Shown: positions 3,967 to 20,263 of the stretch, in pieces
Layout of the letters: each line of letters begins with the position of its first letter
How positions within the stretch are numbered: position 1 is the first letter of the stretch
NCBI GenBank assembly: GCA_963663895.2
Contig: CAXXRD010000001.1
Location: 640,001-704,000 of the forward strand
Length of the DNA: 64,000 bases
Source: Dehalococcoidia bacterium
GTDB taxonomy: Bacteria; Chloroflexota; Dehalococcoidia; Bin125
Direction: 5' to 3'
Program-made: the position numbers and the translations under genes
Notes under the pieces: model-generated
Told to the model about the DNA's origin: nothing
Database searches by the model: none
The model's input: only the letters and a program-made list of their open reading frames with translations

Positions 3967-4941
3967 ATGGAGTCCAAGCCAGGCTTTCTGTTCTACGCCG
4001 TGCCGGGTCAACGCAAGTCGATGATCGCGGCGGCCGAGGAGCTCGACCGGCGCGGCTTTCCCTTCATCTACTGCAACCACGGATCCGCACGCGTTTTGCC
4101 GGCCGGCCAGGAGGCGCAGCAGTCAGGCGTGGTCCGGACCTACATCGGCACGGCGGTGACGGACGGCCTGAGCCACTGCCTGGCGATCGCGATGCGGACG
4201 AAGCGCATCACCGTCGGCACGGGGATCGAGGTGACGTACACCCGGCACCCGGTCGAAATGCTCGGCGTGGCGAACTACATCAACGAGGTCAGTGGCGGCC
4301 GCTTCCTCCTCGGAATCGGACCCGGCCACAACGAGATCCTCCGGCAATGGAACTACCCCATCGAGAAGCCCTTGGCGCACATGCGCCGCTACACGCAGGA
4401 GCTGCGCGCGGTGGCGACGGGCCAGCCGATCCCGCCGCTGATCTTCTCGGTGCTGCGCAACGGCATGCTGCGCTTAGCCGGCGAACTCGCCGACGGCGCG
4501 ATCTGGGCCAACGCCGTCCTCTCCTACCTGCCAACGGCGCTCAAGGAAGTCCCGGCCGAGAAGCGGGATTCCTTCATCGTGGCAAATCTGGCTCCCTGCT
4601 ACGTCTCGGAAGATCGCGCGGAAGCGTTGGAAGCCGTGCGCGTGGCGCTGACCAACTACCTGACGCTAACGAACTATCAGCGCTACTTCACGGAAGCGGG
4701 CTACGGGAAAGAAGTGGAGCAGGCGAAGGCGGCGATAGCCGCGAACGATCACGCCGGAGTCGCGGCGGCCGTGTCGGAGCGCATGGCGGACGATATCTGC
4801 CTCTACGGCAGCGCAGCGGACGTGCGGGAGAGATTCGAGGCCTTCCAGGCGGCCGGGGTGAACCAGATGTGCGTCTCGACGCTGTTCCACAGCGACGATC
4901 AAGCCGAGGCCATCCTGCGAGTCGCGGACGCGTTCGATTAG
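3967..4941 (+). CDS. LLM class flavin/F420-dependent oxidoreductase (tandem paralog 2)
   Basis: TKRITVGTGI..SGGRFLLGIGPGH..LAGELADG. Confidence 0.88.
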   Translation: MESKPGFLFYAVPGQRKSMIAAAEELDRRGFPFIYCNHGSARVLPAGQEAQQSGVVRTYIGTAVTDGLSHCLAIAMRTKRITVGTGIEVTYTRHPVEMLGVANYINEVSGGRFLLGIGPGHNEILRQWNYPIEKPLAHMRRYTQELRAVATGQPIPPLIFSVLRNGMLRLAGELADGAIWANAVLSYLPTALKEVPAEKRDSFIVANLAPCYVSEDRAEALEAVRVALTNYLTLTNYQRYFTEAGYGKEVEQAKAAIAANDHAGVAAAVSERMADDICLYGSAADVRERFEAFQAAGVNQMCVSTLFHSDDQAEAILRVADAFD

Positions 4942-4945
4942 CCCC

Positions 4946-5869
4946 GTGCAGAAGCCGGGCTTCGTCCTCAGCGCACCGCCGGGACAGCGCAAGGCGATCA
5001 TCGAAGCCGCCCGGGAACTGGAACGGCGCGGATTCCCGCACGTGCTGTGCCCGCACGAATACGCGCGGCCGCACGACGCGCAAGCGCCGTACGACTGCCT
5101 GAGTCTCTGCACCGCGCTGGCCCAGGCGACGCAGGCGATCCGGATCGTGAGCGGCGTCGCGGTGACCTACACCCGTCCCCCTGCCGACATGGCCGCGGCC
5201 GCCTCCTTCAATTACGAAATCAGCGACGGGCGCTTCATGCTGGGCCTGGGTTCGGGCTACAAGATCGTGCTCGATCGCTTCGGCATCAAGACGGAGCCAC
5301 CCATCCCGCACATGCGGCGCTACCTAGAAGAGCTGCGATCCGCGGCAACCGAGCAACCGCTGCCCCCCATTCTCATCGCCGCGCTGCGGCGGAGAATGGC
5401 CGCACTGGCGGGAGAGCTCGCGGACGGACTGATCGGCGGCAACTGGGCGCTTTCCCATGTCCCGGCAACCCTCGCCAGCATCCCGGCCGACCAGCGTGAC
5501 CGGCTCATCGTTGCCAACGTCACCCCCGTGTATCTCTGCGATGATCGAGCAGAAGGACTGGCGTTCATGCGCCGGCTCTGCGCAGCCTTCAGCCGCATCC
5601 CCACCTACGCCGCCTACTTCAGCGAAGCCGGCTACCAGGAAGAGGTCGAGCGGGCGCAGGCGGCCTTCGCAGCGGGCACGAGCCAAGCGGCGGACGCCAT
5701 TTCGGAACGCATGGCGGACGATATCGGCATCTTCGGTTCCCCCCACGACATCCGGGAGCGCGTCGAGGCGTGGCAAGCGGCCGGCGTGAACTGGCTTACG
5801 CTTTCGACGCTGTACCCAATCCGCGACCGCGCCGCAGCGGCGCTCCGCGTGGCTGCAGTCTTCGACTAA
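4946..5869 (+). CDS. LLM class flavin/F420-dependent oxidoreductase (tandem paralog 3)
   Basis: SDGRFMLGLGSG..LAGELADG; clear similarity to the two upstream paralogs. Confidence 0.88.
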   Translation: MQKPGFVLSAPPGQRKAIIEAARELERRGFPHVLCPHEYARPHDAQAPYDCLSLCTALAQATQAIRIVSGVAVTYTRPPADMAAAASFNYEISDGRFMLGLGSGYKIVLDRFGIKTEPPIPHMRRYLEELRSAATEQPLPPILIAALRRRMAALAGELADGLIGGNWALSHVPATLASIPADQRDRLIVANVTPVYLCDDRAEGLAFMRRLCAAFSRIPTYAAYFSEAGYQEEVERAQAAFAAGTSQAADAISERMADDIGIFGSPHDIRERVEAWQAAGVNWLTLSTLYPIRDRAAAALRVAAVFD

Positions 5870-5947
5870 ATCGACCGCCCCTCGACCGCATTGCCCCCTC
5901 TGGCGCCCAATAGTTGTTTATGTCTCTTGATCATGGGCAGGTTTTCC

Positions 5948-5977
5948 TTGACAGCCCTCTTGGCCCACTGAAAAAAT
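5948..5977 (+). promoter_or_regulatory. Putative sigma70 promoter of the solute-binding protein gene
   Basis: Consensus TTGACA at 5948-5953 followed about 18 nt later by TG-A-AAAAAT, in a locally AT-rich patch. Confidence 0.5.
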
Positions 5978-6133
5978 TCGCGGATAGGGTGTACCGCTTG
6001 CCCGATGATCTGTCGGGCTGCGGTAGCATTGGCAAGCCTTGGCCGGTCACCCGCCGGGCGGGGTTTCTATCCGTTGTCCCCAAGCATGCTGGGGCGAAGA
6101 CTGCGCAGTTGGATTAGCTGAAGGAGGAGCGGA

Positions 6134-8008
6134 TTGAGCGAAAGCTTCATCGACAAAACGAACAGGAAGGTGATGCGACGCCGGGTAAGCCGGCGCAGCA
6201 TCCTCGCCGCGTCGGGAGCGGCTGGCCTCGGGGCCGCAGGGTTAGCTCTCGTAGGCTGCGGCGACGATGACGACGATGCGCCGGCGGTCGCTCAGGCCCC
6301 GGCCGCTCAGGCCCCGGCTGCTCAGGCCCCGGCTGCTCAGGCCCCGGCCGCTCAGGCCCCGGCCGCTCAGGCCCCGGCAGAGCAAGCTCCCATGGAAGAG
6401 CAGATGCCCATGGAGGAATCCATGGAGTTCGGGCCCGCGACGCATGAGGCGGTGCCGCCGCGGTCCAGCAAGGACATCGCGGTTCTGGCAGTGAGCGCGA
6501 CCCCGATCGCGGTCGACCCCGACTACGGTCACGGCAGCCCGCAGACCTGGGAATCGTGGATGAACGTCTTCGACCAAACGATCAAGTTTGGTTGGCGGGA
6601 CTACCCATTCGACGTCGGCGAAGTCAATCACGTCGGCTATGTCTCGTTCGAGAACGACGACCTGCTGCCCTGGATGCAGGAATCGTGGGAACTCAGCGAG
6701 GATCAGACGAGCCTCGTGATCAACATCCGGCCAGGCGTCCAAAGCTCGACCGGCAACGAGTTGACCGCTGAGGACTTCGCCTACCGGATCGACCGGGCCT
6801 TCGGGTTGGGCGCCATCGGCGCTTTCTTCACCCAGCTCATCAACATCGACCCGGAGAACCCGTACGAGATCCTGGGCCGGCACCAGATCAAGGTGAATTC
6901 GACGAACCCAAACGGCCTCCTGCTCCCCATCTGGGCGAACAGCGCCTGGCAGGTCATCGACCAGGTGGAGGCGCGCGCCGCCGCCACCGCCGACGACGAG
7001 TGGTCCGTGGAATGGATGGCGCAGAATGGGGTCGGCTTCGGGAGCATCGCGGTCGACACCTTCGGAACCGGTGAGCGCGTCGTCTTCACTGCGAACCAGA
7101 ACTACTTCCGCGGTGAGCAGCCGATCACGAACATCGTCTACGAAGAGGTTCCGCAGGCCTCCAACCGCCTGGCGGCGGTGGCGGCCGGCGAGGCCGACGC
7201 GGCCTACGGGCTTCCCGGAGAGCTGTGGATCCAGGCCCGCGACGAGGCGATCCAGAACCCGATCGCCATCAAGGGCAACCTGATCATCTTCGGGTTCATG
7301 AACGCGCTGCGGGAGCCGTGGCAGGACCCGCGGACGCGGCAAGCGATGAACTGGGCGACCCCTCGCCAGGAGATCCTGGACATCGCCTACGGAGGCTTGG
7401 GCGTACCGTGGACCACGGTCATGACCTCGATCTTCCCGGGCGTCAACGAGAGTGTCGTACCCTGGGGCGCGGATCCCAACGTTGGCGAGGCCCGCGCGCT
7501 ACTCGACGCGGCCGGTCAAAGCGACGGCTTCGATGTCACGCTCGACTACGACACCTCCGTGGCGCAGTACGAGCGCATCGGCGTGCTGCTGCAAGACGCG
7601 TACTCCAACATCGGCGTGAACGTCACGTTGAACCCGCAGCCGAATGGGCCCTACGCGGCCGAGGCCACTGGCAAGCAGAAGACTTTCGGACTCTGGCAGG
7701 ACGCCTACATCCAGCCGGACCCGATCTACTTCCTGAACCTTGGCTACGACGCCGGGCTGGGCGGCATCAACAACTACGGACAGGTCGACGACCCGGAGTT
7801 GAACGACATGCTGGAGCGGGGCAGTCTCTTCACGGACCTCCAGGACCGTGTGGATATCGCAACGCCGATCCAGGAGCGGGTCGTGGATCTCGCGCCGTAC
7901 ATCTGGTTGGTGGAGCCGTTCTACACCAACGTGCTCAACGAGAACCTGCGCGGGTTCCGCTGGCACACCACCCAAGAGACCTACTGGTCGGATATGTACT
8001 TCGTCTAG
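6134..8008 (+). CDS. ABC transporter family-5 (peptide/nickel-type) substrate-binding Tat-lipoprotein
   Basis: AAGGAGGAG SD plus TTG start; SRRSIL twin-arginine motif, lipobox LVGC; SBP_bac_5 features (WELSED, GNELTAEDF, DPRTRQAMNWA). Confidence 0.9.
   Translation: MSESFIDKTNRKVMRRRVSRRSILAASGAAGLGAAGLALVGCGDDDDDAPAVAQAPAAQAPAAQAPAAQAPAAQAPAAQAPAEQAPMEEQMPMEESMEFGPATHEAVPPRSSKDIAVLAVSATPIAVDPDYGHGSPQTWESWMNVFDQTIKFGWRDYPFDVGEVNHVGYVSFENDDLLPWMQESWELSEDQTSLVINIRPGVQSSTGNELTAEDFAYRIDRAFGLGAIGAFFTQLINIDPENPYEILGRHQIKVNSTNPNGLLLPIWANSAWQVIDQVEARAAATADDEWSVEWMAQNGVGFGSIAVDTFGTGERVVFTANQNYFRGEQPITNIVYEEVPQASNRLAAVAAGEADAAYGLPGELWIQARDEAIQNPIAIKGNLIIFGFMNALREPWQDPRTRQAMNWATPRQEILDIAYGGLGVPWTTVMTSIFPGVNESVVPWGADPNVGEARALLDAAGQSDGFDVTLDYDTSVAQYERIGVLLQDAYSNIGVNVTLNPQPNGPYAAEATGKQKTFGLWQDAYIQPDPIYFLNLGYDAGLGGINNYGQVDDPELNDMLERGSLFTDLQDRVDIATPIQERVVDLAPYIWLVEPFYTNVLNENLRGFRWHTTQETYWSDMYFV
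6290..6379 (+). repeat. Six tandem 15-bp repeats GCTCAGGCCCCGGCn encoding (AQAPA)6 linker
   Basis: Seen directly; in frame within the SBP N-terminal linker. Confidence 0.95.
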
Positions 8009-8033
8009 TCGGTCCTCGCAGGGAAGCGAGAAC

Positions 8034-8065
8034 AGGGGCCGCCCTCCGGGCGGCCCCTCTCTTTG
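8034..8065 (+). terminator. Intrinsic terminator after SBP gene
   Basis: AGGGGCCGCCC-TCC-GGGCGGCCCCT perfect 11-bp stem followed by CTCTTTG. Confidence 0.8.
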
Positions 8066-8321
8066 CGCTCACATCGCCACCCCCGTATGGCCCCGGGTTC
8101 ACTCTTCGGACGAAGCCGGCCCAATTCTCTCCCCTCACCCTCCCCCCAAGCGTCGAGCCTTTTCTGCACTCTTTCTCAGCGTCTCCCAGCATCGGAAGGC
8201 CAATCGCCGAAACCGTGTCCTCGCCTCGCCTGCGCTGGATAAGGTCCGACCGAGAACGAGCGGCCGGTAAGCCGGGGCTCACCCCCGTCCGTCCAGCGGG
8301 ATCACGGACGGATCGCGGGGC

Positions 8322-8356
8322 ACAAAGAAGGGGCCCGGCATCTCTGCCGGGCCCCT
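8322..8356 (-). terminator. Intrinsic terminator after second SBP gene
   Basis: AGGGGCCCGGCA-TCTC-TGCCGGGCCCCT 12-bp stem; TCTTTGT tail on minus strand. Confidence 0.8.
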
Positions 8357-8390
8357 CAACCGTCGCGCTACGGAATCGTCTTCATGCCTC

Positions 8391-10274
8391 CTAGGAGGTG
8401 AAGAAGACCTCCCCGTAATCGATCTGGTTGTCCGTGCGGTGGTAGTAACCACTCAGGTTGTCGCGCCAGATCCAGGACGGGTCGGTCCAACACATCCAGG
8501 CCATCGGCGCGTCCTCGGCAACGATGCGCTGCGCCTCCGCGAAGTGGCCGAAGGCCTCCTCGGAGAGATCGTCGCCCACGTTGACGCCGGCCTCCAGCGC
8601 CTGCCAGAACTCCGCCGACTGGGCGCGGCCCTTGTGCCATCCGGCCCAGTTGAGGATGGAGTCCGGGGTGAAGAAGAGACCGAGGTAGTACGGAATCGTC
8701 TGCACGATCGCGTAGTCCCTGGTCATGAACCCCGGCAGCCCCTCGTCACCGATGGAGCGGTTCTCGTTGGACTCGGAGGGCGTCAGGCCCTTGAGCTGCA
8801 CGTCGATGCCCGCCGCCGCGGCGGACTCCTTCATGAGGATGACCGCCTCCTCCTGGTCGGGGAAGGCGAGCTCGAAGCCCATCTCGAAGCTGAAACCATC
8901 CGCAAGGCCGGCCTCGGCCAGCAGCGCGCGGGCCCCGTCGATGTCCGTCTTGACGTATGGCTCGAACAGGTCGGGGCGCGACCCGGGGATCGGGTCCCAA
9001 ACCATCCCGAACTGCCGGCGAGCGCGGCCTTGGTAGACCGTGTTGATGACCTCGTCGTAGGGGATCGTCTGCAGGAAGGCCTGCCGGACGCGAACGTCGT
9101 CGAACGGCTGCACGCCGAAGTTCATCGTCGCCCACAGGCTGAGGTCCGTGAAGGCGTCCGGCACGAAGATGCCCTCACTGGCCGCCGCGTCGACCTGCTC
9201 GCGAGCGAGCATCTGACGCGCGATGTGCACGTCGCCGCGCTTCACCAGCGAGAGACGCGTCGAGGTTTCCGGCACTACGCGCCAGATCATGCGCTCCGGC
9301 CGGTTGGGGTTACCGCCCACCCAGTGCTCGTTGCGCAGCCACAGGGCCTGCTGGCCCTGGGTGAAGCTGTCCACGTAGTAGGGGCCGTGGCCATGGGCGT
9401 TATTAACGGCCCACTCAGCGGCCCACGGGTCGGCCTCCGTCGAGTTCTCCATCAGCCGCCTGGAGTCGACGATGGAGCCGCCGTGGTTGTTGGCGATCGC
9501 GTGCTCGAACGTCGTGAACGGCTGCGGCAGTTGGAACTGGACCGTGTAGTCATCGATCCGCCGAACCTGACTATCGATGTCGAAATCATCCCGATTCCGG
9601 TAGAGACCGAGGGCGAAGTCCTGGACGAAGGCTCCGATCAGATTCAGATGGAACTTGCGATCCTGCGTGTAGACCACATCGTCCGCCGTGAGCTCGTTGC
9701 CCCAGGGACTCATGACCCCTTCCCGCAGCTTGAAGGTATAGGTCATGCGGTCGTCGCTGCGTTCCCAATCCTCAGCGAGCATCATCTGGAAGTCGTCGCG
9801 CTGGCCGCCCACCGACTGCTGCAGGTAATCGCCGTCAAAGACCGTGGGCTTGATGGCGTAGCGCATCAGCTGGGCATGCTCGTTGACCGAGGCTTCCTGG
9901 CTCTCGTTCACCGAGGCCAGTTCCTGGTCCAAGGTGGTCCAGAGGGTCGCCTGCGCGACGATCAGGTCCCGCTCGACATCTGCTGGCTCCGGGGCAGGAG
10001 CCGGCGCCTCGTCCGGCATCTGCTCCGCCGGCATCTGTTCGTCCGGCATCTGCTCCGCCGGGGCTTGAGCAGCTGGCGCCTGAGCGGCCGGGGCCTGCGC
10101 GGCCGGGGCTTGCGCGGCGGCTGGCGCATCATCGTCGTCGTCGCCACAGCCCACGATTCCGATGGCGACCGCGCCGAGCCCGGCGCCTCCCATGCTGGCC
10201 ATAACTTTGCGACGAGAGACGCGGCGGTCGGCCCACCACCTCTTCGTCGTCTTCGGACTCTTCTTGATGTACAT
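8391..10274 (-). CDS. ABC transporter family-5 substrate-binding Tat-lipoprotein
   Basis: SRRKVM twin-arginine motif, lipobox IVGC, AAQAP linker, YTFKLREGV..GNELTADDV, DVRVRQAF; AGGAGG upstream of ATG 10274. Confidence 0.9.
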   Translation of the reverse strand: MYIKKSPKTTKRWWADRRVSRRKVMASMGGAGLGAVAIGIVGCGDDDDDAPAAAQAPAAQAPAAQAPAAQAPAEQMPDEQMPAEQMPDEAPAPAPEPADVERDLIVAQATLWTTLDQELASVNESQEASVNEHAQLMRYAIKPTVFDGDYLQQSVGGQRDDFQMMLAEDWERSDDRMTYTFKLREGVMSPWGNELTADDVVYTQDRKFHLNLIGAFVQDFALGLYRNRDDFDIDSQVRRIDDYTVQFQLPQPFTTFEHAIANNHGGSIVDSRRLMENSTEADPWAAEWAVNNAHGHGPYYVDSFTQGQQALWLRNEHWVGGNPNRPERMIWRVVPETSTRLSLVKRGDVHIARQMLAREQVDAAASEGIFVPDAFTDLSLWATMNFGVQPFDDVRVRQAFLQTIPYDEVINTVYQGRARRQFGMVWDPIPGSRPDLFEPYVKTDIDGARALLAEAGLADGFSFEMGFELAFPDQEEAVILMKESAAAAGIDVQLKGLTPSESNENRSIGDEGLPGFMTRDYAIVQTIPYYLGLFFTPDSILNWAGWHKGRAQSAEFWQALEAGVNVGDDLSEEAFGHFAEAQRIVAEDAPMAWMCWTDPSWIWRDNLSGYYHRTDNQIDYGEVFFTS

Positions 10275-10564
10275 GCTCTTTCGCTTCCTCCTACTTGCTA
10301 GACGACCTGCGTCGCGTCGCTCCACCGGGAACGAAGTCCCGGCCCTAGCTTGTGTGGAGCGTACATTACTCGATACAGCCTTAGATCAAGTGACTCGCAC
10401 CGCACCTCCTTGGCATCTTTCAGAATTATGTCCCTAAGGCGCGCTGCCGCGCCCTGGAAAGGTCGCAGTGTCGCCGATCGAGGCGCGTCAGTCCAGCCCG
10501 CGCACCGCGCGCGGATTTAGTGACACAATGGGCCCAAAGCTGCCTAGCGTGAGAGGAAGGTGCC

Positions 10565-11125
10565 ATGCCCCTGACCCGTGTCCCGCACGAAGCGTTGGCC
10601 GAGGACTATCGCGCCATGGTCGAGGAATGCATCGATCAGGCCGGCGACGCCCGTTTCCTGGAGATCGGCGCCAATGCGCCGCACATGATGCAATTCTACT
10701 TCGGCGAGTTCTACGAGAAGATCTTCTTCGCGGGCGTCGCTCCCGTCCCGATCAAGGAGCTCGCGCGGCTTCGCCTTTCCACCCTGCACGGCTGTGCGTT
10801 GTGAAACAAGGTCAATACCGTCTCGGCGAGACGGCACGGTATCACCGACGCGCAGATCGCGAGCTTGGACGACTTTGAGAACGGGCCCTTCGATGAGCGG
10901 GAGAAGGCTGCCCTGCGACTGGCGACGGTCATGGCATGGACCGCGCCGCGCGGCTACGTGGACGATATCCTGGAAGCGCAGTTGCGCGAGTATTTCTCGG
11001 ACGCCCAGATCGTCGAGCTGGGAATGGTCTGCGCCCAACTGGTCGGGATGGCGAAGCTTCTGTTCGTTTTCGACTGGGCGGATAAGGAAGATTACTGCCC
11101 ACTGGCGCCGCTCCCAGAAGCATAG
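10565..11125 (+). CDS. AhpD/carboxymuconolactone-decarboxylase family protein, probable selenoprotein (CxxU; TGA at 10802-10804)
   Basis: ORFs 10565-10804 and 10865-11125 are in the same frame, separated only by one TGA. Read-through gives KELARLRLSTLHGCAL-U-NKVN...FDEREKAAL...YFSDAQIVELG, a complete 186-aa AhpD-like protein. Confidence 0.85.
10810..10846 (+). promoter_or_regulatory. Putative bacterial SECIS element
   Basis: CCGTCTC-GGC-GAGACGG perfect stem (10818-10834), G-containing loop about 21 nt after the UGA; alternative lower stem ATACCG/CGGTAT. Confidence 0.65.
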
Positions 11126-11222
11126 GCCCCGCGCTGTCGGCATCCACCGCATCAGCGGCGATTCGCTGGCAGGCGGCTGCCTTCCGGCCGACATGATCCG
11201 TCCGTCTATATACTGAGTCCCC

Positions 11223-13010
11223 ATGCCACACGCACCTGCCGACGACACTGCGGGCATCGATCCCGTCACGTTCGAAGTGGTCCGCAACGCCTTCGTCTCG
11301 ATCTGCAACGAGATGGCGCTGGTGGTCGCCAAGACCGCCTACTCCACCCCCGTCAACGAGGGCCGCGACTTCGCCAGCGGCATCTACGATCACGAGGGCA
11401 AGCTGATCTCCCAAGGCGAGTTCGACTTGCCCGCTTTCGTGGGGCTCACGCATCTCACGGTGCCGGAAGTGATCCGAGCGATCGGGCGGGAAAACATGCG
11501 GCTCGACGACATCTACATGATCAACGACCCCTACGTGGCCAGTACGCATTGCAACGACATTCACTTCGTGAAGCCGGTGTTCATCGACGGGAAGCTGGTG
11601 GCGTTCGTCTCGGCCACCGCGCACTGGTCGGACGTGGGAGGCATCGCTCCCGGATCGCTGATCTGCGCGGCGCGGACGCACTTCGAGGAAGGCGTGCGCA
11701 TTCCGGCGGTCACGATTTATGAGCAGGGGGTCCTAAACGAGGACATCCTCTCCCTGCTCCTCTCCAATATGCGCCAGTCCTGGGAGCGTCTGGGCGACTT
11801 CAACGCGCAAGTGGCGGCCGTGCGGGCGGGCGAGGCGCGCTTCCACGCGCTGGTGGACCGGCACGGGTTGGACGTCGTGCGCGGGACGATGGCGGAGGTG
11901 CAGGACTATTCCGAACGGATGGTCCGGGCCGCCTTCGCCAGCCTTCCGGACGGCAGCTATTACGGAGAGGACCGCTGCGATCAGGACATTTTCACCGGAG
12001 AGCCCAAAGCGATGCGGCTCACGCTCACGATCCGCGGCGACCAGGCGGTCTTCGACCTGACCGAGAGCGACGGCCCAGCGGAGTGCAGCATCAACTGCAC
12101 GATCGCGGCGACCACGTCGGCGCTCTTCATCGCCTTGGCGTCCATCCTGCCGCCCATGCCGATCAACAGCGGCGTGATGCGCGCGATCGAGATCAAGGCC
12201 ACGCGCGGATCGCTCGCCTGGGCAGAGCCCCCGTCGGGAATCTCGGGGCTGCCCGCCACCACCATGGACACGGTGACGAGCTGCGTGACGCAGGCGCTCA
12301 GCCAAGCGTTGCCCGAGCGCGGCGTCGGCGCCGCCTACAGCATCCTGAATTGCGTCTTCTCCGGTTTCGACGAACGGCCCGAGTTCCTGTCGCCTTTCAT
12401 CAACTACGTATGGGGCTTTGGCGGCATGGGAGCGACTGCGAGCAAGGATGGGACCGCGGCAGCGGCCGCCCCCTACGGCGGCAGTATTCAGACCATCCCC
12501 TGCGAGCTGCAGGAGCGCCGCTATCCCGTCCTCTGGCGCCGCCATCAGCTCCTCCCCAGCTCGGGTGGACCCGGCGCCACCCGCGGCGGCTTGGCGCTCG
12601 ACGAGCTGGTGGAGTTTCCCTTCCAGTCCGGCGTCGTCTCGTGCATCGGGGCGCGCGAGCGCTTTGGCGCACCCGGCCTCTTTGGCGCGGGCGACGGCGC
12701 GACGGCGGGTTTGATCATCAACCGGGGGACCGAGTCGGAACGCAACCTGGGGGTGATGGCGCTTCACCAACCCGTCAGCGCCAACGAGGTCATGTCGTTG
12801 TGGTCGGGCGGGGGAGGCGGCTACGGCGACCCGCTGGACCGGCCGCTGGAACGGGTCCTGGACGACGTCAAGGACGAGTACATCTCGATCGAGGGCGCAC
12901 GCGCCCAGTACGGCGCGGTCATCCGTGAGGTCGACCGCCGCACACTCGCCTTCGAGATCGATGTGGCAGCGAGCGAGCGGCTGCGGTCCGAGCGACGCGC
13001 CGCCCGTTAG
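11223..13010 (+). CDS. Hydantoinase B/5-oxoprolinase family protein
   Basis: DPVTFEVVRN, NDPY..THCND, HWSDVGG, GGGGGYGDPLDR. Confidence 0.92.
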   Translation: MPHAPADDTAGIDPVTFEVVRNAFVSICNEMALVVAKTAYSTPVNEGRDFASGIYDHEGKLISQGEFDLPAFVGLTHLTVPEVIRAIGRENMRLDDIYMINDPYVASTHCNDIHFVKPVFIDGKLVAFVSATAHWSDVGGIAPGSLICAARTHFEEGVRIPAVTIYEQGVLNEDILSLLLSNMRQSWERLGDFNAQVAAVRAGEARFHALVDRHGLDVVRGTMAEVQDYSERMVRAAFASLPDGSYYGEDRCDQDIFTGEPKAMRLTLTIRGDQAVFDLTESDGPAECSINCTIAATTSALFIALASILPPMPINSGVMRAIEIKATRGSLAWAEPPSGISGLPATTMDTVTSCVTQALSQALPERGVGAAYSILNCVFSGFDERPEFLSPFINYVWGFGGMGATASKDGTAAAAAPYGGSIQTIPCELQERRYPVLWRRHQLLPSSGGPGATRGGLALDELVEFPFQSGVVSCIGARERFGAPGLFGAGDGATAGLIINRGTESERNLGVMALHQPVSANEVMSLWSGGGGGYGDPLDRPLERVLDDVKDEYISIEGARAQYGAVIREVDRRTLAFEIDVAASERLRSERRAAR

Positions 13011-13023
13011 CGGGGCTGCGGCC

Positions 13024-13929
13024 CTAGCGCGCCTGGACCCACTCGCCGATACGCTCGATCGCTTGCTGTCCCTCCGGCAGCATCCCCGCGAACTGCTGCC
13101 ACACATGCACCATCTCCGGCCACTCCTCCAGCGTCACATTGACGCCGGCCGCTCGAGCACGCTCAGCGACGCGGGTCGTGTCCGCGAGGATGATCTCATG
13201 ATCGCCGACCTGCATCAGCAGCGGCGGCAGTCCCGCCAGCTCCGCATACACCGGTGAAGCGAGGGGGGTTTGGGCGGGAGCGCCGCCAAGGTACAGCCCG
13301 GCCATTCGCTTGAGGCCGGCCTCCCCGATCATCGGATCGACATCTTTCCGCGTTTGGAGGGTCTCCCCGCTGACCGCCATGTCGCTCCAGGCGGAGAGGG
13401 TGACCGCGGCGTCGGGAAGAGGAATCCCAGTGTCGCGGGCTTGCACGAGCGCGGCGAGGGTGAGACCCCCTCCGGCCGAATCGCCCGCCACCAACGTCTT
13501 GCCGGCAGGTTTGGGGCCGTCAGGCCCGTTGTCGTGCATCCAGCGGAGAGCAGCGACCGCATCGTCGACGGCAGCCGGGTAGGGATGCTCGGGCGCGAGG
13601 CGATAGTCCAGGAAGAGCGCTGCGTAGCCGGTCGCGGCAGCGATCCGCGCAACGAGATCGCGGTGCGTGTCCAGCGATCCAATGACGTAGCCCCCCCCGT
13701 GCAGGTAGAGCAGCCGCTTGTCGGGATCGGAGTTCGGCGCCTGGACCCATTCCGCCGGAATTCCCTCTGCCTTGGTCGCAGCGGTCCGCGTTCCTTCGGG
13801 CGGGGGCATCCCGTTACTGTTCAGGAGCAAGCGCAAGGCATCGTACGTCTTCGCCTCCATGTGCTCGTCGATGATGCTGGCGAGCTTACCCGCCATCCCA
13901 CGGACCTTCTCAAGCTGTTCGGATGCCAC
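13024..13929 (-). CDS. Alpha/beta hydrolase, HSL/Aes-family esterase
   Basis: HGGGY, DYRLAPEHPYPAA, GDSAGG, MVHVW. Confidence 0.93.
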   Translation of the reverse strand: MASEQLEKVRGMAGKLASIIDEHMEAKTYDALRLLLNSNGMPPPEGTRTAATKAEGIPAEWVQAPNSDPDKRLLYLHGGGYVIGSLDTHRDLVARIAAATGYAALFLDYRLAPEHPYPAAVDDAVAALRWMHDNGPDGPKPAGKTLVAGDSAGGGLTLAALVQARDTGIPLPDAAVTLSAWSDMAVSGETLQTRKDVDPMIGEAGLKRMAGLYLGGAPAQTPLASPVYAELAGLPPLLMQVGDHEIILADTTRVAERARAAGVNVTLEEWPEMVHVWQQFAGMLPEGQQAIERIGEWVQAR

Positions 13930-14135
13930 CGGTGCTCCTCCTCATTAGCTATCACTGCTCTTAGTGCCACTTGAACCAGCGCTTGCCGAAAAATCGCTAC
14001 GCAGCGTTCTGTCGCAGGTTCTACCACGGCAGCGGCCCTCGCGCGAAGGCTCGAAGCCAACAGCCCCTGTATCATCCTGCAGCAGAAGGACGCGCCGGGT
14101 GGGTCGGCGCGCACGGTACGGTGACAGGAGACGGG

Positions 14136-15743
14136 ATGGGAACGACGGCGCGGCGCAGCATTTGGGCCTGGGGGTTGGAATCCGAAGAGCCGAGCGAGGC
14201 CGACCGGAAGGCGGAAGCCAAACGGATGGCGGAGGAGTATGGCACCGTGGTCGACCCGCCCCCGCTGCCCACCATCGATCGCGTGGACATTGGGGCGCCC
14301 CGGATCCAGGCGCCGGACGCCCTCGCCACGATCTGCGCCAACGACAAGCACGACCGCGCCGCCCATGCCTACGGACGCTCCTATCCCGACAAGCTGCGCG
14401 CTTTCCAGGGCGACTTTCGCAACGCCCCGGACCTCGTCGCCTACCCGAGCAGCGAGGAGGAGGTCAGCGCCGTTCTCGAATGGTGCTCCGACAACGGGTA
14501 CGCGGCGATCCCCTACGGCGGAGGATCGTCCGTGGTCGACGGCGTGAATCCGCCCGAGGGCTACGACGGCATCGTGACGATCGATCTGACGAGGTTGGAC
14601 CAGGTACTGGAGATCGATGAATCGTCGCGCGCGGCGCGCATCCAGGCGGGCGTTTTGGGCCCGGCCCTGGAGGCGCAGTTGAAGCCGCACGGGTACACGC
14701 TGCGCCATTTCCCGCAGTCGTTCGAGTTCTCCTCCCTGGGTGGCTGGATCGTGACCCGTTCCGGAGGGCATTACGCCACCAACCACACGCACATCGACGA
14801 GTTCGTGGAGTCGGTACGGATGGTCACACCGCGGGGCATCTGGGAATCCAGGCGGCTCCCCGGGAGCGGAGCCGGCCCGAGTCCGGACCGCCTCGTCATC
14901 GGCAGCGAGGGCATTCTCGGGATCGTGACGGAAGCGTGGATGCGGATTCAGAAGCGGCCCCGCTTTCGGGCATCCGCCGGCGTCCGCTTCCCCGACTGGG
15001 CTTCGGGCTTCGAAGGAACCCGCCAGGTCGTCCAAGCGAAGCTCTGGCCAGCCAATCTGCGGCTCTTGGACCCAGCCGAAGCGCAGAAGGGCTCCGGGTT
15101 GGATGGGAAGCAGTCGCTGCTGATCATCGGTTTCGAATCAGCGGAGGTGCCGCAGGGCGCCTTCATCCAGGAAGCCGTCCAGATCGCCCGCGCGGCCGGC
15201 GGGCAGATCGACGACGAAGCGATCGTCGTCGACGACGGCACGGGGAACCCCACGGGGCGCGGCGGGAACGTCGGCGCCTGGCGGGATTGGTTCATCCGCG
15301 CCCCCTATGCCAAGAACACCCAGGTTGGGCTGGGGCTGATCGCCGACACCTTCGAAACCGCGATCACGTGGGACCGCTTCCCCGAGTTCGATGCGGCGGT
15401 GCGGACCGCCATGACGGACATCTTGCAGCGGGTCTGCGGCGGGGGAGAGATCGCGTGCCGCTTCACCCACGTCTACCCGGACGGACCCGCGCCGTATTAC
15501 ACCTACGCCGGGTTTGGCACGCCGGGGGCGGAGTTGGAGCAGTGGAACATGATCAAGGCGGCCGGCTCGGACGCCGTCATGAACGCCGGCGGGACCATTA
15601 CGCACCATCACGCCGTTGGCCGGATGCACCGTCCTTGGTACGACGGTCAGCGACCGGATCTCTTCGCGGGAGCGCTGCGCGAAGCCAAGCGCTCCCTGGA
15701 TCCCAACGGCGTCCTAAATCCAGGCGTTCTGATCGACCCGTAG
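14136..15743 (+). CDS. FAD-binding oxidoreductase, alkyl-DHAP synthase-like
   Basis: PYGGGSSVV, LRHFPQSFEFSSLGGW, GSEGILG, THHHAVG, LDPNGVLNPG. Confidence 0.9.
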   Translation: MGTTARRSIWAWGLESEEPSEADRKAEAKRMAEEYGTVVDPPPLPTIDRVDIGAPRIQAPDALATICANDKHDRAAHAYGRSYPDKLRAFQGDFRNAPDLVAYPSSEEEVSAVLEWCSDNGYAAIPYGGGSSVVDGVNPPEGYDGIVTIDLTRLDQVLEIDESSRAARIQAGVLGPALEAQLKPHGYTLRHFPQSFEFSSLGGWIVTRSGGHYATNHTHIDEFVESVRMVTPRGIWESRRLPGSGAGPSPDRLVIGSEGILGIVTEAWMRIQKRPRFRASAGVRFPDWASGFEGTRQVVQAKLWPANLRLLDPAEAQKGSGLDGKQSLLIIGFESAEVPQGAFIQEAVQIARAAGGQIDDEAIVVDDGTGNPTGRGGNVGAWRDWFIRAPYAKNTQVGLGLIADTFETAITWDRFPEFDAAVRTAMTDILQRVCGGGEIACRFTHVYPDGPAPYYTYAGFGTPGAELEQWNMIKAAGSDAVMNAGGTITHHHAVGRMHRPWYDGQRPDLFAGALREAKRSLDPNGVLNPGVLIDP

Positions 15744-15876
15744 CGCAACGGTGTCGGCCTGGAGTGAAAGATGTTGCGCGCGCCCTAGTGCGGGCTGGGC
15801 TTGAATGCTACGGTGAGCCGGGAATCGCGAGGCCGTACGCCGCTCCGCTGAGCGTTACGCCTACTACGACAAGCTT

Positions 15877-17283
15877 TTGGGTCTGTTTCACCGCTTCTTC
15901 AGTCACCCGACCGAACCCGTAGCGACCGTTGCTCCGGCCGCCGCGCCGCGCCGTGCATCCACGGCGGACGTCCCCCCGCCCGCGGGCGAGCAGCGCTCGG
16001 GCAACGGCGCCTCCCGATCACGACGGCGACGGCGGCGCAGCGGTAGACGGTCCCATTCACAGCGCGAGCCCGATCGCTCGCGTGCCGCGGCCGTCCAGGC
16101 GCTCAGCTCGGGCGGGTACCGCCTGCCCGCACTCGAGGAGCTCGACCGCATCGACCGCGCGCAATATCCACCCGACTTCGAAGCGCTGGGCCTCGGCGAT
16201 CGTTCGTTGGCAACCGTGACCGCTCTCGGCTTCAACGTGCCCACGCCGATCCAGCGCGAGACCATTCCGGTGCTCCTCTCCGGCGCGGATGTCGTCGGGC
16301 AGGCGCAGACCGGTACGGGGAAGACGCTGGCCTTCGGATTGCCCCTCGTCGAGCGGCTCGACCGGGACTCGGCCAAAGTGCAGGGCATCGTGCTCGTCCC
16401 GACGCGCGAACTCGCGGATCAGGTCTTCAGCGTCCTGGACTTCCTGGCGACAGCCGCCGGCTTGCAGGCGATCGCCCTCATGGGCGGGCGCCGGCTGGAC
16501 CAAGACTTTGCCAAGCTCGCCGCGCAGCCGCAGATCGTCGTCGGGACGCCAGGCCGCGTGATCGACCATCTCGAGCGCCGCACGCTGGACCTGAGCGGCG
16601 TGCGCGTCGCCGTCCTGGACGAAGCCGACCGCATGCTCGACATCGGCTTCGAGCCGGATATCCGCCGGATCCTCAATCGCTCTCCCCGCAACCGTCAGAC
16701 GGCACTGTATTCCGCCACCATCCCCACCACGATCAAGACGCTGATCTGGAGATACATGCGCGACCCCCAGCACGTCCACACGGAGACAGAGCGCACCATC
16801 CCCCTCATCCGCCAGCGGTACTACGAAGTCGCCGAGCGGGACAAGCTCGACGCGCTCATGGAGCTGTTCCCCGAGATGCGCGGGCGGACGCTGATCTTCT
16901 GCAATATGAAGGTCACCGTTGATCGGCTGGTGCGCCGACTCCAGAGCGAGGGCGTCCCCGCCGAAGCGATTCACGGGGACATGGACCAGCGCAAGCGCGA
17001 CCGGGTCATGCGGCGCTTCCGCGCTGGCGAATTGCAGATTCTCGTCGCGACGAACGTCGCTGCGCGCGGCCTGGACATCGAAGACGTCAAGCACGTCGTG
17101 AATTTCGACGCCCCGCACACCGCGGAAGACTATATCCACCGCGTCGGGCGCACAGGCCGCGCGGGGCGCGACGGCAGCGCCACCATCTTCGTGGCAGAGT
17201 GGGATTTGGAAACGTTCGAGTCGATTCGGAAGGCAGCGGGTCCCGCGCTCGAGCGGGGGCAGCTCGCCCTCTACGCCAACTGA
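15877..17283 (+). CDS. DEAD-box RNA helicase with Arg-rich N-terminal extension
   Basis: PTPIQ, AQTGTGKT, PTREL, TPGR, DEADRM, SAT, ARGLD, HRVGRTGRAG; start position uncertain. Confidence 0.93.
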   Translation: MGLFHRFFSHPTEPVATVAPAAAPRRASTADVPPPAGEQRSGNGASRSRRRRRRSGRRSHSQREPDRSRAAAVQALSSGGYRLPALEELDRIDRAQYPPDFEALGLGDRSLATVTALGFNVPTPIQRETIPVLLSGADVVGQAQTGTGKTLAFGLPLVERLDRDSAKVQGIVLVPTRELADQVFSVLDFLATAAGLQAIALMGGRRLDQDFAKLAAQPQIVVGTPGRVIDHLERRTLDLSGVRVAVLDEADRMLDIGFEPDIRRILNRSPRNRQTALYSATIPTTIKTLIWRYMRDPQHVHTETERTIPLIRQRYYEVAERDKLDALMELFPEMRGRTLIFCNMKVTVDRLVRRLQSEGVPAEAIHGDMDQRKRDRVMRRFRAGELQILVATNVAARGLDIEDVKHVVNFDAPHTAEDYIHRVGRTGRAGRDGSATIFVAEWDLETFESIRKAAGPALERGQLALYAN

Positions 17284-17419
17284 GTGGAACGTATCGTGAT
17301 CAAGGAGGGGATCGCCCGAGAAGCAGGTTTAGCAACAAGATGAGCTACGATGATTTGGCACGAGAGCCCCGATCGGGCTAGCAGCCGGTAGCCCGGCTCG
17401 GAGGATTACGCAGTAACCC

Positions 17420-17704
17420 ATGAGAATTTACGTCGGCAATTTGCCGTTTTCCTCAGGCGAGGAAGACGTGCGTCAACTCTTCGCTACCTACGGCAACGTG
17501 GTTTCGGTGGGGCTTCCCACGGACCGCGAAACAGGACGGCCGCGCGGCTTCGGCTTCGTCGAAATGTCGAATGAGGATGCCCAGAAGGCGATCGAGGCCT
17601 TGGACGGGCAGACCTTCGGCGGACGCACCCTGCGGGTCAACGAAGCCCGGCCCCGCGGGGACCGCGGCGATCGCGGCGACCGTGGCGGCGGCGGGCGCTG
17701 GTAG
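17420..17704 (+). CDS. RRM-domain RNA-binding protein with Gly/Arg-rich tail
   Basis: RNP2 IYVGNL, RNP1 RGFGFVEM, GGRTLRVNEARPR. Confidence 0.95.
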   Translation: MRIYVGNLPFSSGEEDVRQLFATYGNVVSVGLPTDRETGRPRGFGFVEMSNEDAQKAIEALDGQTFGGRTLRVNEARPRGDRGDRGDRGGGGRW

Positions 17705-17861
17705 GCGTCTCGAACACACACGACGAAGCCCGGCGCCGTCCGGGATCGTTCGCCGGCGACGGGGTCCGCCGATAGCGGCCGCCGCCGCCGTGTGACCGGA
17801 TCCAAATCCGCGCCCGTGGAATCGGGCGACCGCCAAGCGAGATTCCACGATCGCGCCGCGG

Positions 17862-19172
17862 TTGGGAGATGCCGTGCCCGAGGATGCGCCGCCGTCGATC
17901 AGCCTCCCGTCCGTCGCTGACGAGCGCCCGCCAGCGGGTCTCTCGCCGTGGCAAGCGGCGTTGCATTTCTTCGAGGATGGCGCCCGCCGCGTCCAGCTGG
18001 ACGAAGGCTGCGCCGATTTGCTGCGCCGCCCTTGGCGCGAACTGCACGTATCGGTTCCGATCCGCCGGGACAACGGCACCCTTGAAGTGCTGGCGGGATT
18101 CCGCGTGCAACACAACGGCGCCCGCGGACCGTATAAAGGAGGCGTCCGCTTCCACCCCAAGGCGGATCTGGACGAAGTGCGCGCGCTCGCAGCGCTGATG
18201 ACGTGGAAGACCGCCGTACTGGACCTGCCGTTCGGCGGCGCCAAGGGCGGGGTGCAGTGCGACGCCACCACGATGTCGGAGAACGAACTGCGACAGATCA
18301 CGCGCACCTATACCCAAAACATCGCCCACCTCCTCGGCGTCAGCCGCGACATCCCAGCACCCGACCTCGGCACCAACGCCCAAACGATGGCTTGGATGAT
18401 GGACGCCTACGGCGCTCGCTATGGCTATTCCCCGGGGATCGTGACGGGCAAGCCGCCCGCACTGGGCGGCTCGGAAGGACGCGCGGAAGCAACGGGGCTA
18501 GGCGTCGCGTTGATCACGCGCGACACCGTGCAGGCGATGGGTCGTGGATTGGAAGGGCTCCGCGTCGCCATCCAAGGCTATGGCAACGTCGGTGCCAACG
18601 CCGCGCGCTATCTGGACGCACTAGGGGCCACGATCGTCGCCGTTTCGGACATCCACGGGGGCGTGCATGATCCGGACGGGCTTGATGTCGCCGGGCTCCA
18701 GGCCCACTACGCGCGGACCGGCAGCGTCGCCGCCATGCCGGGCATCCAAGACTGTAGCGGCGAGGCGCTGCTCCACACCGAATGCGACGTCCTCATCCCC
18801 GCCGCGATCAACGGCGTCATCAATCGGGAGACGGTGGGCGGCGTGCAGGCGCCACTCATCGTGGAAGGGGCGAACGGACCGGTCACGCCCTACGCCGACC
18901 ACGAACTCACCAAACGCGGCGTCGTGATCGTGCCGGACATCATCGCCAACGGGGGCGGCGTCACCGTGTCGTATTTCGAGTGGACGCAGAACGTCCAGCG
19001 CTACCACTGGGGGCAGGAGCGCGTCGCGGAAGAGTTGGAGCGCGCGCTCTGCAGCGCTTATCGCGATCTATTGGTACGCGCCGCCAGCGACGGCGTCACG
19101 CTCCGGGCAGCAGCGTTCATGACCGGAATCGAGCGGGTGGCGGAGGCGATCCGTCTGCGCGGCTTCCTCTAG
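17862..19172 (+). CDS. gdhA: Glutamate dehydrogenase (Glu/Leu/Phe/Val DH family)
   Basis: GPYKGGVRFHP, GGAKGG, DIPAPD, ATGLGV, QGYGNVG, EGANGP, NGGGVTVSYFEW. Confidence 0.9.
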   Translation: MGDAVPEDAPPSISLPSVADERPPAGLSPWQAALHFFEDGARRVQLDEGCADLLRRPWRELHVSVPIRRDNGTLEVLAGFRVQHNGARGPYKGGVRFHPKADLDEVRALAALMTWKTAVLDLPFGGAKGGVQCDATTMSENELRQITRTYTQNIAHLLGVSRDIPAPDLGTNAQTMAWMMDAYGARYGYSPGIVTGKPPALGGSEGRAEATGLGVALITRDTVQAMGRGLEGLRVAIQGYGNVGANAARYLDALGATIVAVSDIHGGVHDPDGLDVAGLQAHYARTGSVAAMPGIQDCSGEALLHTECDVLIPAAINGVINRETVGGVQAPLIVEGANGPVTPYADHELTKRGVVIVPDIIANGGGVTVSYFEWTQNVQRYHWGQERVAEELERALCSAYRDLLVRAASDGVTLRAAAFMTGIERVAEAIRLRGFL

Positions 19173-19174
19173 CG

Positions 19175-20263
19175 CTACTCAAGTGCCGCGAGCACGGCGG
19201 GGAGATCGGCCGCCGCGCCCGCCACGCCACGGACTATCGCGTCCCCGTCGATCACGACGGCACGAAATTCGCCGTCCACCTCGAACGCGGCACCGACATC
19301 ACCGCGCCATCTCAAGGCGACGTGCTCCGCCGGCACGGTGGCATCCTCCTCGATCAAGATGGCCGTCGGATACCCTCCAGCTCGCGCCACGGCAGCGGCT
19401 TCCGCCGAACAGGCCAAGCATCCCGGCGGGCTGAACAGCAGAATCAACGGCGCTGCGAGATTATCCGACAAACGCCACGCCTCCCCACCATCGAGCCGCT
19501 GCGCCAAGAAGTCGGGCGTGGGCGCCCCGACCGTCGGAGCCTCGGGAATCCCGTCGGGATTGAACCGCAGCGGCAGCGCCTTCGGACCGGGCAGTGGCTC
19601 CGCCCCGACTACCTCGTCCAGCGTGGTCATGAGCGCGGCGACCTGTTCCTCGAAGGTGTCGTCCGGCGCCTGGCCGACGAAAATGGTGTCGATGACGCCA
19701 TCCGGCCGGACGAAGATGGAATTCGGCGGCCCCACTACCCCGTATCGCCGTGTCACGCCGCCGCCGAAATCCATCGGGAGGATGAAATCAATGCTGAACT
19801 CATCGCGAAAGGCGGCAGCCGATCGCCGCGCCTCTTCAATATTCACGCCCGCGACCACCAGCCCAGCCTCACGGTACTGGCGCTGAAGCCGCACGAGGAC
19901 GGGGATCTCACGTCGACACGGGGGACACCAAGACGCCCAAAAGTTCAGCACGACCGGATGGCCGCGCCAATCCGAGAGCCGGAACCGCCCCCCGTCGAGC
20001 GTTTCGAGCTCAAAATCGGGCGCCAGCGCTCCGGCCGCCACGGCCACCGGCCGCTGGCCCGGATTGAGATAGCGCGGGAGATCGGCCGGTCCGAACGCGT
20101 CGCCCGTGCTCAAGCCCTCCCCTCGTAGCGCAAGCCAGAGCGCCAGCGCCACCGCCCCCATCACCAGCACGCCCACGGCCAGCGTGCGCCGACCGTGGTA
20201 CTCGCGCGGGCGGTTGGGATTCTCGTCCGGAAATACGCCCTCGTCCGTCTGTGGAGCGTCCAT
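19175..20263 (-). CDS. Membrane-anchored TlpA/ResA-like redoxin with two thioredoxin-like domains
   Basis: N-terminal TM segment; APDFEL..NFWASWCPPC; second GAPTPDF..CLAC. Confidence 0.8.
   Translation of the reverse strand: MDAPQTDEGVFPDENPNRPREYHGRRTLAVGVLVMGAVALALWLALRGEGLSTGDAFGPADLPRYLNPGQRPVAVAAGALAPDFELETLDGGRFRLSDWRGHPVVLNFWASWCPPCRREIPVLVRLQRQYREAGLVVAGVNIEEARRSAAAFRDEFSIDFILPMDFGGGVTRRYGVVGPPNSIFVRPDGVIDTIFVGQAPDDTFEEQVAALMTTLDEVVGAEPLPGPKALPLRFNPDGIPEAPTVGAPTPDFLAQRLDGGEAWRLSDNLAAPLILLFSPPGCLACSAEAAAVARAGGYPTAILIEEDATVPAEHVALRWRGDVGAAFEVDGEFRAVVIDGDAIVRGVAGAAADLPAVLAALE

Follow-up and report, generated by a model that had tools for sequence, protein, structure and literature searches.

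The subject of this analysis is an interrupted reading frame at positions 10565-11125 (plus strand) of a 64,000-nucleotide stretch of DNA (the window) from a Dehalococcoidia bacterium (assembly GCA_963663895.2, contig CAXXRD010000001.1, positions 640,001 to 704,000 of the forward strand). An earlier note, made from the letters alone, had read this frame as a hidden selenoprotein gene of the AhpD/CMD family. The frame starts with an ATG at 10565, ends with a TAG at 11123-11125 and spans 186 codons, yielding a product of 186 amino acids if its sole in-frame TGA, at 10802-10804, is translated as selenocysteine (Sec or U). No further stop and no frameshift occur in the 186 codons. The TGA lies in the context His75-Gly-Cys77-Ala-Leu-[TGA]80-Asn, and the codons TGT GCG TTG TGA at 10793-10804 spell a predicted redox motif, Cys77-Ala-Leu-Sec80, which aligns with GCAYC of Pseudomonas aeruginosa PA0269 and GCMYC of Bmp8. 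Downstream of the TGA, the segments CCGTCTC (10818-10824) and GAGACGG (10828-10834) can form a 7-base-pair stem capped by a GGC apical loop (10825-10827), with 13 nucleotides between TGA and stem; we treat this hairpin (10818-10834) as a predicted bacterial selenocysteine insertion sequence (SECIS). A purine-rich, Shine-Dalgarno-like sequence, GAGAGGAAGG, at 10551-10560, 4 nucleotides 5' of the ATG, may serve as the ribosome-binding site. The TGA in its H-G-C-A-L-[TGA]-N context, the frame remaining open to 11125 and the perfect hairpin CCGTCTC-GGC-GAGACGG, whose stem starts at the 14th nucleotide past the TGA, are all present as the earlier note described them.

When translation table 11 is applied, the open reading frame (ORF) list contains this gene as an N-terminal fragment of 79 amino acids (10565-10804) and a C-terminal fragment of 86 amino acids (10865-11125) with an internal TTG start at 10865. 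We found corresponding pieces in a library of 1.84 billion protein cluster representatives, where three proteins of 79 amino acids each (P0046, P0055 and P0080) stop one residue short of the Sec column and one of 86 amino acids (P0003) has 95% identity to residues 101-186. These fragments, which derive from relatives, are the evidence for the splitting by gene callers that the earlier note had foreseen, and public gene predictions contain only such truncated pieces, cut at the UGA.

Read through the TGA, the protein matches the Pfam domain CMD (PF02627) at 34 bits (cut-off 23) over residues 45-100, a match that spans the TGA. An AlphaFold2 model based on a 46-row alignment predicts a single all-helical domain of ten helices, with a predicted local distance difference test (pLDDT) score of 96.0 and a predicted template-modeling score (pTM) of 0.91. 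The pLDDT is 96-99 across the TGA junction, and the model places Cys77 and Sec80 at the start of helix 78-90. Foldseek paired this model with over 20 AhpD/CMD chains at probability 1.00 and template-modeling (TM) scores of 0.60-0.73, including the AhpD-core or peroxidase-related structures 2prr, 3c1l, 6k40, 2oyo and 2pfx as well as PA0269; TM scores were 0.69-0.73 for 2prr, 3c1l, 6k40 and Bmp8. Among 46 relatives, C77 is invariant (46/46) and Cys or Sec fills position 80 in 45/46, while E65 (41/46), R68 (43/46), G92 (44/46), E151 (45/46) and, at the C-terminus, C178 (27/46) are conserved to differing degrees. The AhpD signature is E-x11-C-x-x-C-x3-H, in which the His at +4 acts as a proton relay. 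E65 lies 12 residues before C77, as in the Glu-x11-Cys arrangement of AhpD. The +4 position after the second Cys is Asn84, and the relatives carry N (17), R (12), D (10) or H (3) there.

These data bear on the possibility that the UGA simply terminates translation, with the 79-residue piece and the 86-residue piece (from TTG 10865) made separately, or with the N-terminal piece made alone. Both pieces are predicted as separate proteins in public collections and an in-frame TTG is available at 10865, but the public fragments are the plain output of a table-11 gene caller. Homologs that carry Cys in place of Sec (Cys-forms) are single chains of 182-194 amino acids, the model folds as a single compact domain with high confidence over the junction, the 20-codon stretch separating the TGA from TTG 10865 is conserved in frame in paralogs at 52% identity, and the covarying hairpin described below is confined to forms that carry the TGA (Sec-forms or TGA-forms). 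The single-chain Cys-forms and the one-domain model exclude two unrelated ORFs, and we consider termination at the UGA very improbable.

To compare the residue-80 column across relatives, a six-frame search was run with the read-through protein over 61 genomes (the source genome and 60 relatives). It returned 53 match rows from 33 of the 61 genomes, and 25 of the 53 rows contained exactly one TGA. The alignment holds 43 of the 53 rows; eight TGA-less rows were left unfetched and two TGA-less rows failed a phmmer threshold of E 1e-3. At the residue-80 column of the 43 aligned homologs we observed TGA in 25, Cys in 12 and Asp, Glu or Phe in 6, and the TGA occupies this identical column in 25/25 TGA-bearing homologs. 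The TGA-forms comprise orthologs in two same-genus genomes at 92-94% identity, a 52%-identical paralog within the source genome (described below), further TGA-forms at 63%, 56% and 52-55%, and remote groups at 23-34% (whose motifs include NDCSY-U-L and NQCSV-U-L). The protein library yielded 990 matches at E <= 1e-3, and all 20 full-length library homologs that were aligned (182-201 amino acids, <=47% identity) have Cys at the residue-80 column. The closest Cys-forms, at 42-44% identity, are found in metagenome-assembled genomes (MAGs) of Proteobacteria (single-protein locus search, 8 loci found). Thus Cys or TGA is present at this column in 37 of the 43 aligned homologs as well as in every aligned library homolog, as the earlier note would have it.

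We also estimated the ratio of nonsynonymous to synonymous substitution (dN/dS) against the two genus orthologs. In codons 1-79 it was 0.20 and 0.11, and in codons 101-186 it was 0.10 and 0.03; dN/dS was below 1 in 6/6 comparisons. From these values, both halves flanking the TGA appear to be under purifying selection. A decaying CMD/AhpD gene, hit by a Cys-to-stop mutation (TGC or TGT to TGA), would need only one transversion to acquire this codon, and table 11 does break the frame into 79 and 86 amino acids. Such a pseudogene is at odds with the identical TGA in 25 homologs of 27-94% identity, including two paralogous lineages, with dN/dS values of 0.03-0.20 to either side of this codon, with the lack of any other stop or frameshift in the 186 codons, and with a covarying hairpin 3' of the TGA in TGA-forms only. 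As dN/dS is below 1 on both sides, we exclude a decaying pseudogene and grant this reading a minimal probability.

The source genome is a MAG in 5 contigs, and a sequencing or assembly error at a true TGC or TGT codon was therefore considered. The stretch was found in runs from 11 studies, whose uncoded organism labels are marine, sponge and coral metagenomes. Contigs from three of these studies (X3 record 2, X4 record 6 and X5 record 11) cover 10802-10804 with no variant listed and no other letter at the codon; the evidence here comes from contigs, which drop rare variants. The TGA is also found at the same place in the two other genus genomes and in more distant ones. Together, these observations answer the concern over sequencing error that the earlier note had raised, and leave an error at this codon a negligible likelihood.

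We then considered the predicted SECIS. A hairpin in a single sequence is weak evidence, because such stems are not rare in a genome of 66% GC and the local fold of 10790-10860 has a z-score of only -2.3. A stem of at least 7 base pairs with a G in the loop, 10-16 nucleotides downstream, follows 75 of 8390 TGAs (0.89%) that have at least 40 open codons on each side, and 207 of 25644 comparable Cys codons (0.81%). The case therefore rests on the comparison with relatives, for which 25 Sec-forms were aligned without gaps over 48 nucleotides from the UGA onward. Every Sec-form has a hairpin at a matching distance, and the stem sequences vary by clade (for example CCGUCUC/GAGACGG, CCGCUUC/GAAGCGG, CUUCUC/GAGAAG, UCCCUCU/AGAGGGA and CUGCAUC/GAUGCAG). 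Across an 8-pair helix (columns 16-23 with 27-34), 91.5% of the 200 cells are paired, compared with 66.4 ± 2.1% after shuffling, and sliding the helix partner by 1-3 columns reduces pairing to 36.5-55.5%. Compensatory changes on both sides were observed in 8/8 helix pairs, with 56 double-change cells against 15.8 ± 4.4 in shuffles, and the covariation score was 0.732 against 0.274 shuffled; 0 of 500 shuffles matched the observed values.

The Cys-forms served as a negative control in the same register. At least 7 of the 8 pairs were formed in 24/26 Sec-form rows (mean 7.31) and in 0/18 Cys-form rows (mean 2.56); two of the 26 Sec-form rows duplicate, under named records, genus loci that had been counted before, and the paralog in the source genome is excluded. 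The two Sec-form exceptions are G038_b, with 6 of 8 pairs, and G006_b, in which the hairpin is shifted by one base. To judge from these sequences, the TGA column, the covarying stem and the absence of the stem in Cys-forms put the observation far beyond chance. In addition, codons 81-100 are poor in synonymous changes (in G011_b, 2.0/14 sites compared with 27.5/52 and 33.3/58 in the flanks), and a contig from a divergent homolog in runs X3 and X4 matches the gene only at 10802-10834 (33 nucleotides, the UGA and hairpin), with flanks that are unlike. Both features fit a constraint that would act at the RNA level. Downstream of the UGA of selD in the source genome there is no obviously similar GGC-loop hairpin, so we claim no lineage-wide SECIS consensus.

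The source genome (2.37 Mb, 91% complete) encodes the machinery for Sec insertion. Profile searches detected selA at 497.9 bits, selB at 327.5 bits for its N-terminal part and 349.3 bits summed with its C-terminal part (one frame of 634 amino acids), and selD at 359.4 bits (G000:C2:564477-565526; L009:1483-2532), each above its curated cut-off. A single tRNA-Sec with anticodon UCA was identified by Rfam (71 bits) and by ARAGORN, and in the ARAGORN output no other tRNA of this genome has a UCA anticodon. The earlier note had reasoned that selA, selB, selC and selD should lie elsewhere in the genome, and all were detected above curated cut-offs. As a separate observation, selD is itself a selenoprotein gene, with a TGA at residue 17 in the context ALCGG-U-ASK. 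Across the genomes, a TGA-form co-occurs with selA in 15/16 cases, the exception being G038, a genome that is 54% complete; as selA was detected in 52/61 genomes and the genomes are kin, we take this to show consistency and attach no statistical weight to it.

TGA is otherwise an ordinary stop codon in the source genome, where it ends 41-44% of long ORFs (>=300, >=500 or >=700 codons); the other long-ORF stops are TAG (39-43%) and TAA (16-17%). Six of the eight confident genes around the locus (window positions 3967-17283) end in TAG, and our impression is that the TAG share is high for a 66% GC genome. With these data we weighed a recoding of the UGA other than as Sec, either through a genome-wide code in which TGA is a sense codon or through hairpin-stimulated read-through by Trp, Cys or Gly. 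Downstream hairpins can stimulate read-through of stop codons, and the identification of Sec here comes from sequence and not from selenium chemistry. A sense code conflicts with the share of long ORFs ending in TGA and with tRNA-Sec as the only UCA-anticodon tRNA, and the TGA replaces a redox Cys, which is the classical Sec/Cys exchange. The full selABD set is present, selD itself requires Sec decoding, and only in the one incomplete genome named above does a TGA-form occur with no selA detected. We consequently hold non-Sec recoding to be as slight a prospect as the pseudogene.

From our comparative data, we propose that 10565-11125 is one functional, SECIS-dependent AhpD/CMD selenoprotein gene whose UGA is decoded as Sec, and we assign this interpretation a probability of roughly 0.9. 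The integrity of the gene, the conservation of the TGA column, the covariation of the SECIS, the machinery and the fold are direct results of the analyses above, and the 186-residue Sec enzyme claimed by the earlier note is supported by the TGA/Cys column, the covarying SECIS and the selABD genes together with tRNA-Sec.

Several observations weigh against this interpretation or limit its reach. The hairpin alone is no rarer after TGAs than after Cys codons, as given by the percentages above. An Rfam scan of 10200-11300 that included the bacterial SECIS models gave no match at E <= 1; we discount this null result because such elements are short and diverse. Tested against the classical AhpD signature, E65, C77 and U80 fit and the +4 His is missing. 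The kinship of the related genomes means that counts across them overstate independence. The only RNA-library run (X20) gave a single contig of 174 nucleotides (depth 40), which covers only 10374-10547 (also given as 10400-10547) and ends 18 nucleotides before the ATG, leaving the gene uncovered. In the gene neighborhood, no AhpC, peroxiredoxin (Prx) or thioredoxin gene was found among the neighbors at 3967-20128 (a genome-wide Prx search was not run). Conservation of the hydantoinase-B and SBP neighbors described below is limited to the two genus relatives, and the context therefore offers no functional clue.

The upstream RNA-library contig may represent carried-over DNA or a 5' leader. The upstream intergenic stretch, whose identity to its counterparts in the genus relatives is 91% and 83%, showed no significant fold (z-score -0.32), no Rfam match, and no promoter-like or terminator-like site. 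The neighbors examined at 3967-20128 comprise two luciferase-like monooxygenases, two SBP_bac_5 proteins, a hydantoinase B, an alpha/beta hydrolase, an FAD-linked oxidase and a DEAD-box helicase. The hydantoinase-B homolog lies 98 nucleotides downstream of the gene; this hydantoinase-B/oxoprolinase homolog (11223-13010, plus strand) scored 482.5 bits, and no hydantoinase A was seen among the neighbors examined. Hydantoinases A and B are usually paired.

If the UGA is decoded as proposed, SelB carrying Sec-tRNA(Sec) would bind the hairpin at 10818-10834, which would act as a bacterial SECIS, and the hairpin-bound SelB would deliver Sec-tRNA(Sec) when the UGA enters the ribosomal A site. The UGA at 10802-10804 would then be decoded as Sec, selenium incorporation itself being predicted from the sequence features. 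The product would be an all-helical thiol/selenol oxidoreductase of the AhpD fold with a C77-x-x-U80 redox pair, in which Sec takes the place of the second Cys of CxxC. In Mycobacterium tuberculosis AhpD, the second Cys of the CxxC motif is the attacking nucleophile. By the same chemistry, Sec80 may attack a peroxide, sulfenate, disulfide or similar electrophile, and C77 may resolve the resulting selenenylsulfide. We would place the biochemical role only at the level of a CxxU redox enzyme. A classical AhpC-reducing role is not supported, because the +4 residue is Asn84 and there is no AhpC or Prx among the neighbors examined.

The source genome also contains a paralog at G000:C3:81905-82453 on the minus strand (L071:5864-6454), which is 52% identical, carries the motif HGCHF-U-N and is a second CxxU CMD selenoprotein gene. 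Its hairpin, CCGCUUC-GGC-GAAGCGG, covaries, and it has orthologs in both genus relatives. The context of the paralog differs, consisting of an acyl-CoA dehydrogenase, an SBP_bac_5 protein and a short-chain dehydrogenase. At least three more CxxU CMD subfamilies occur in the Chloroflexota family, with the motifs NDCSY-U-L, N(Q/E)CSV-U-L and NDCAV-U-Q (loci L026-L062 in genomes G005, G006, G009, G012, G015, G017, G018, G022, G030, G031 and G038), and up to three TGA-forms are found within the single genome G006.

Elsewhere in the source genome, at G000:C3:101557 on the minus strand, an in-frame TGA lies in the context TTY-U-QGGIR, flanked by 238 open codons on its 5' side and 47 on its 3' side, and a hairpin, UCCGUGC-GGC-GCACGGA, is positioned 10 nucleotides downstream of the TGA. 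This motif resembles an active-site loop of rhodanese, with Sec replacing Cys, and from its sequence the locus is probably another selenoprotein gene. We also tried a genome scan that used the hairpin rule alone. Seven of the eight matches inspected are nonsense frames rich in Arg, Pro and Ala, and one looks real; the scan was rejected as a selenoprotein finder, as the rule does not discriminate between TGAs and Cys codons (0.89% and 0.81%).

Curated NCBIfam models do not capture this protein. TIGR01926, NF041047 and NF041238 gave no match for it at E <= 0.01, and TIGR00778 (ahpD_dom) scored 18.3 bits against a cut-off of 27.8. NF053654 (cut-off 310 bits) was the best match for the protein, its paralog, the distant Sec-forms and the Cys-forms alike, with scores of 45-69 bits in all and 47.2 bits for the protein itself. 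The paralog scored 68 bits with NF053654 and 22.5 bits with TIGR01926, and distant Sec-forms scored 23-50 bits with TIGR01926 (cut-off 81.8). No curated NCBIfam cut-off was reached by the protein, the paralog, five distant Sec-forms or two Cys-forms, nor does any of the additional CxxU CMD subfamilies reach one. Because TIGR01926, NF041047 and NF041238 all missed it, we assign the protein, on its profile scores, to a subfamily that lacks a specific curated NCBIfam model.

The gene shows cleanly, and with good support, how standard gene calling can turn one selenoprotein gene into two "hypothetical" fragments, and recognizing it corrects the annotation of the source genome as well as that of 15 or more related genomes. 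NCBI names proteins by NCBIfam models, so profile-based annotation will probably not give this gene a selenoprotein name. The Chloroflexota family holds several CxxU CMD subfamilies beyond the reach of these models, and the 25 covarying SECIS hairpins could provide a training set for a lineage-specific SECIS model. The gene adds to a kind of AhpD-like CxxU selenoprotein known since 2005 and opens no new biological question.

We then compared the protein with known systems. The nearest solved structure by sequence is PA0269, an AhpD-like CxxC protein (2ijc, 2o4d, 7xw1; E 1.9e-9, residues 57-157), in which GCAYC aligns on GCAL-U so that the second Cys falls in the Sec column, and the fold matches as well. 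However, PA0269 has 145 amino acids, contains Cys and not Sec, and keeps the +4 His where the present protein has Asn84. With M. tuberculosis AhpD (alkylhydroperoxidase D, which reduces AhpC) the protein shares the AhpD fold, the Glu-x11-Cys-x-x-Cys layout (E65, C77 and U80) and a reactive second position, but it differs in having no +4 His, no adjacent ahpC at 3967-20128, low sequence similarity and a single domain of 186 amino acids.

Bmp8 (6ohi, 6ohj) is a tetrabromopyrrole debrominase, a thiol-dependent dehalogenase of the CMD fold. Of the fold matches listed it has the highest TM score (0.73 across 179 columns, 6ohj), its GCMYC motif aligns with GCAL-U and its length is similar (195 amino acids), whereas the sequence match is marginal (E 0.02) and no bmp-type genes occur among the neighbors examined. 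A speculative and, in our estimate, improbable extension is that the protein, its paralog in the source genome and the orthologs of both make up a distinct, unmodeled clade of AhpD-fold selenoproteins that would act as selenol-based reductive dehalogenases or detoxifiers of electrophilic (for example brominated) metabolites, and not as peroxidase partners. The proposed marks of such a clade are the motif HGCxxU-N, the missing AhpD His and often a conserved C-terminal Cys178-Pro; it would be duplicated in Chloroflexota whose DNA occurs in runs labeled as sponge or marine metagenomes. The evidence for this extension consists of the fold match, the motif alignment and the run labels. If true, the clade would parallel both the CMD-fold debrominase Bmp8 and the Sec-dependent iodothyronine deiodinases.

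Among families known to include selenoproteins, NF053654, the "YciW-related (seleno)protein" model, resembles the present protein in its length of about 180 amino acids and in having Sec-forms by its family name, and it is the best match; given a score so far below the cut-off, the protein would be a relative and not a member. A 2026 review (PMC13188914) lists TIGR01926 (peroxidase-related enzyme, the review's "AhpD-like protein" family), PF02627, NF041047, NF041238 and NF041537 as models of AhpD-type selenoproteins, and the present protein differs from those in missing TIGR01926, NF041047 and NF041238.

The kind of protein described here, and the richness of its phylum in Sec, are already in print. 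The Sargasso Sea selenoproteome (PMC1088965, 2005) introduced the new families "AhpD-like protein" (27 sequences, CxxU, COG2128) and "CMD domain-containing protein" (CxxU). In the Global Ocean Sampling (GOS) analysis (PMC2398784, 2008), "AhpD-like 1" (COG2128) accounts for 299 selenoproteins in 37 samples and "AhpD-like 2" (pfam02627) for 70, both with CxxU, and AhpD-like CxxU proteins are placed among the most abundant marine selenoprotein families. The BSepDB paper (PMC13326102) places two Dehalococcoidia, one with 49 selenoproteins and one with 46, among the bacteria richest in them. The remark in the earlier note that AhpD-like selenoproteins had been reported from environmental sequences was therefore correct (PMC1088965, PMC2398784). 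We set the Sargasso, GOS and BSepDB families beside the present protein by description and motif, and not by sequence alignment. On that basis, the protein resembles the marine AhpD-like/CMD CxxU selenoproteins in its PF02627 domain, in Sec at the second Cys position, in its Cys-containing homologs, in a SECIS directly 3' of the UGA, and in its marine or host-associated setting.

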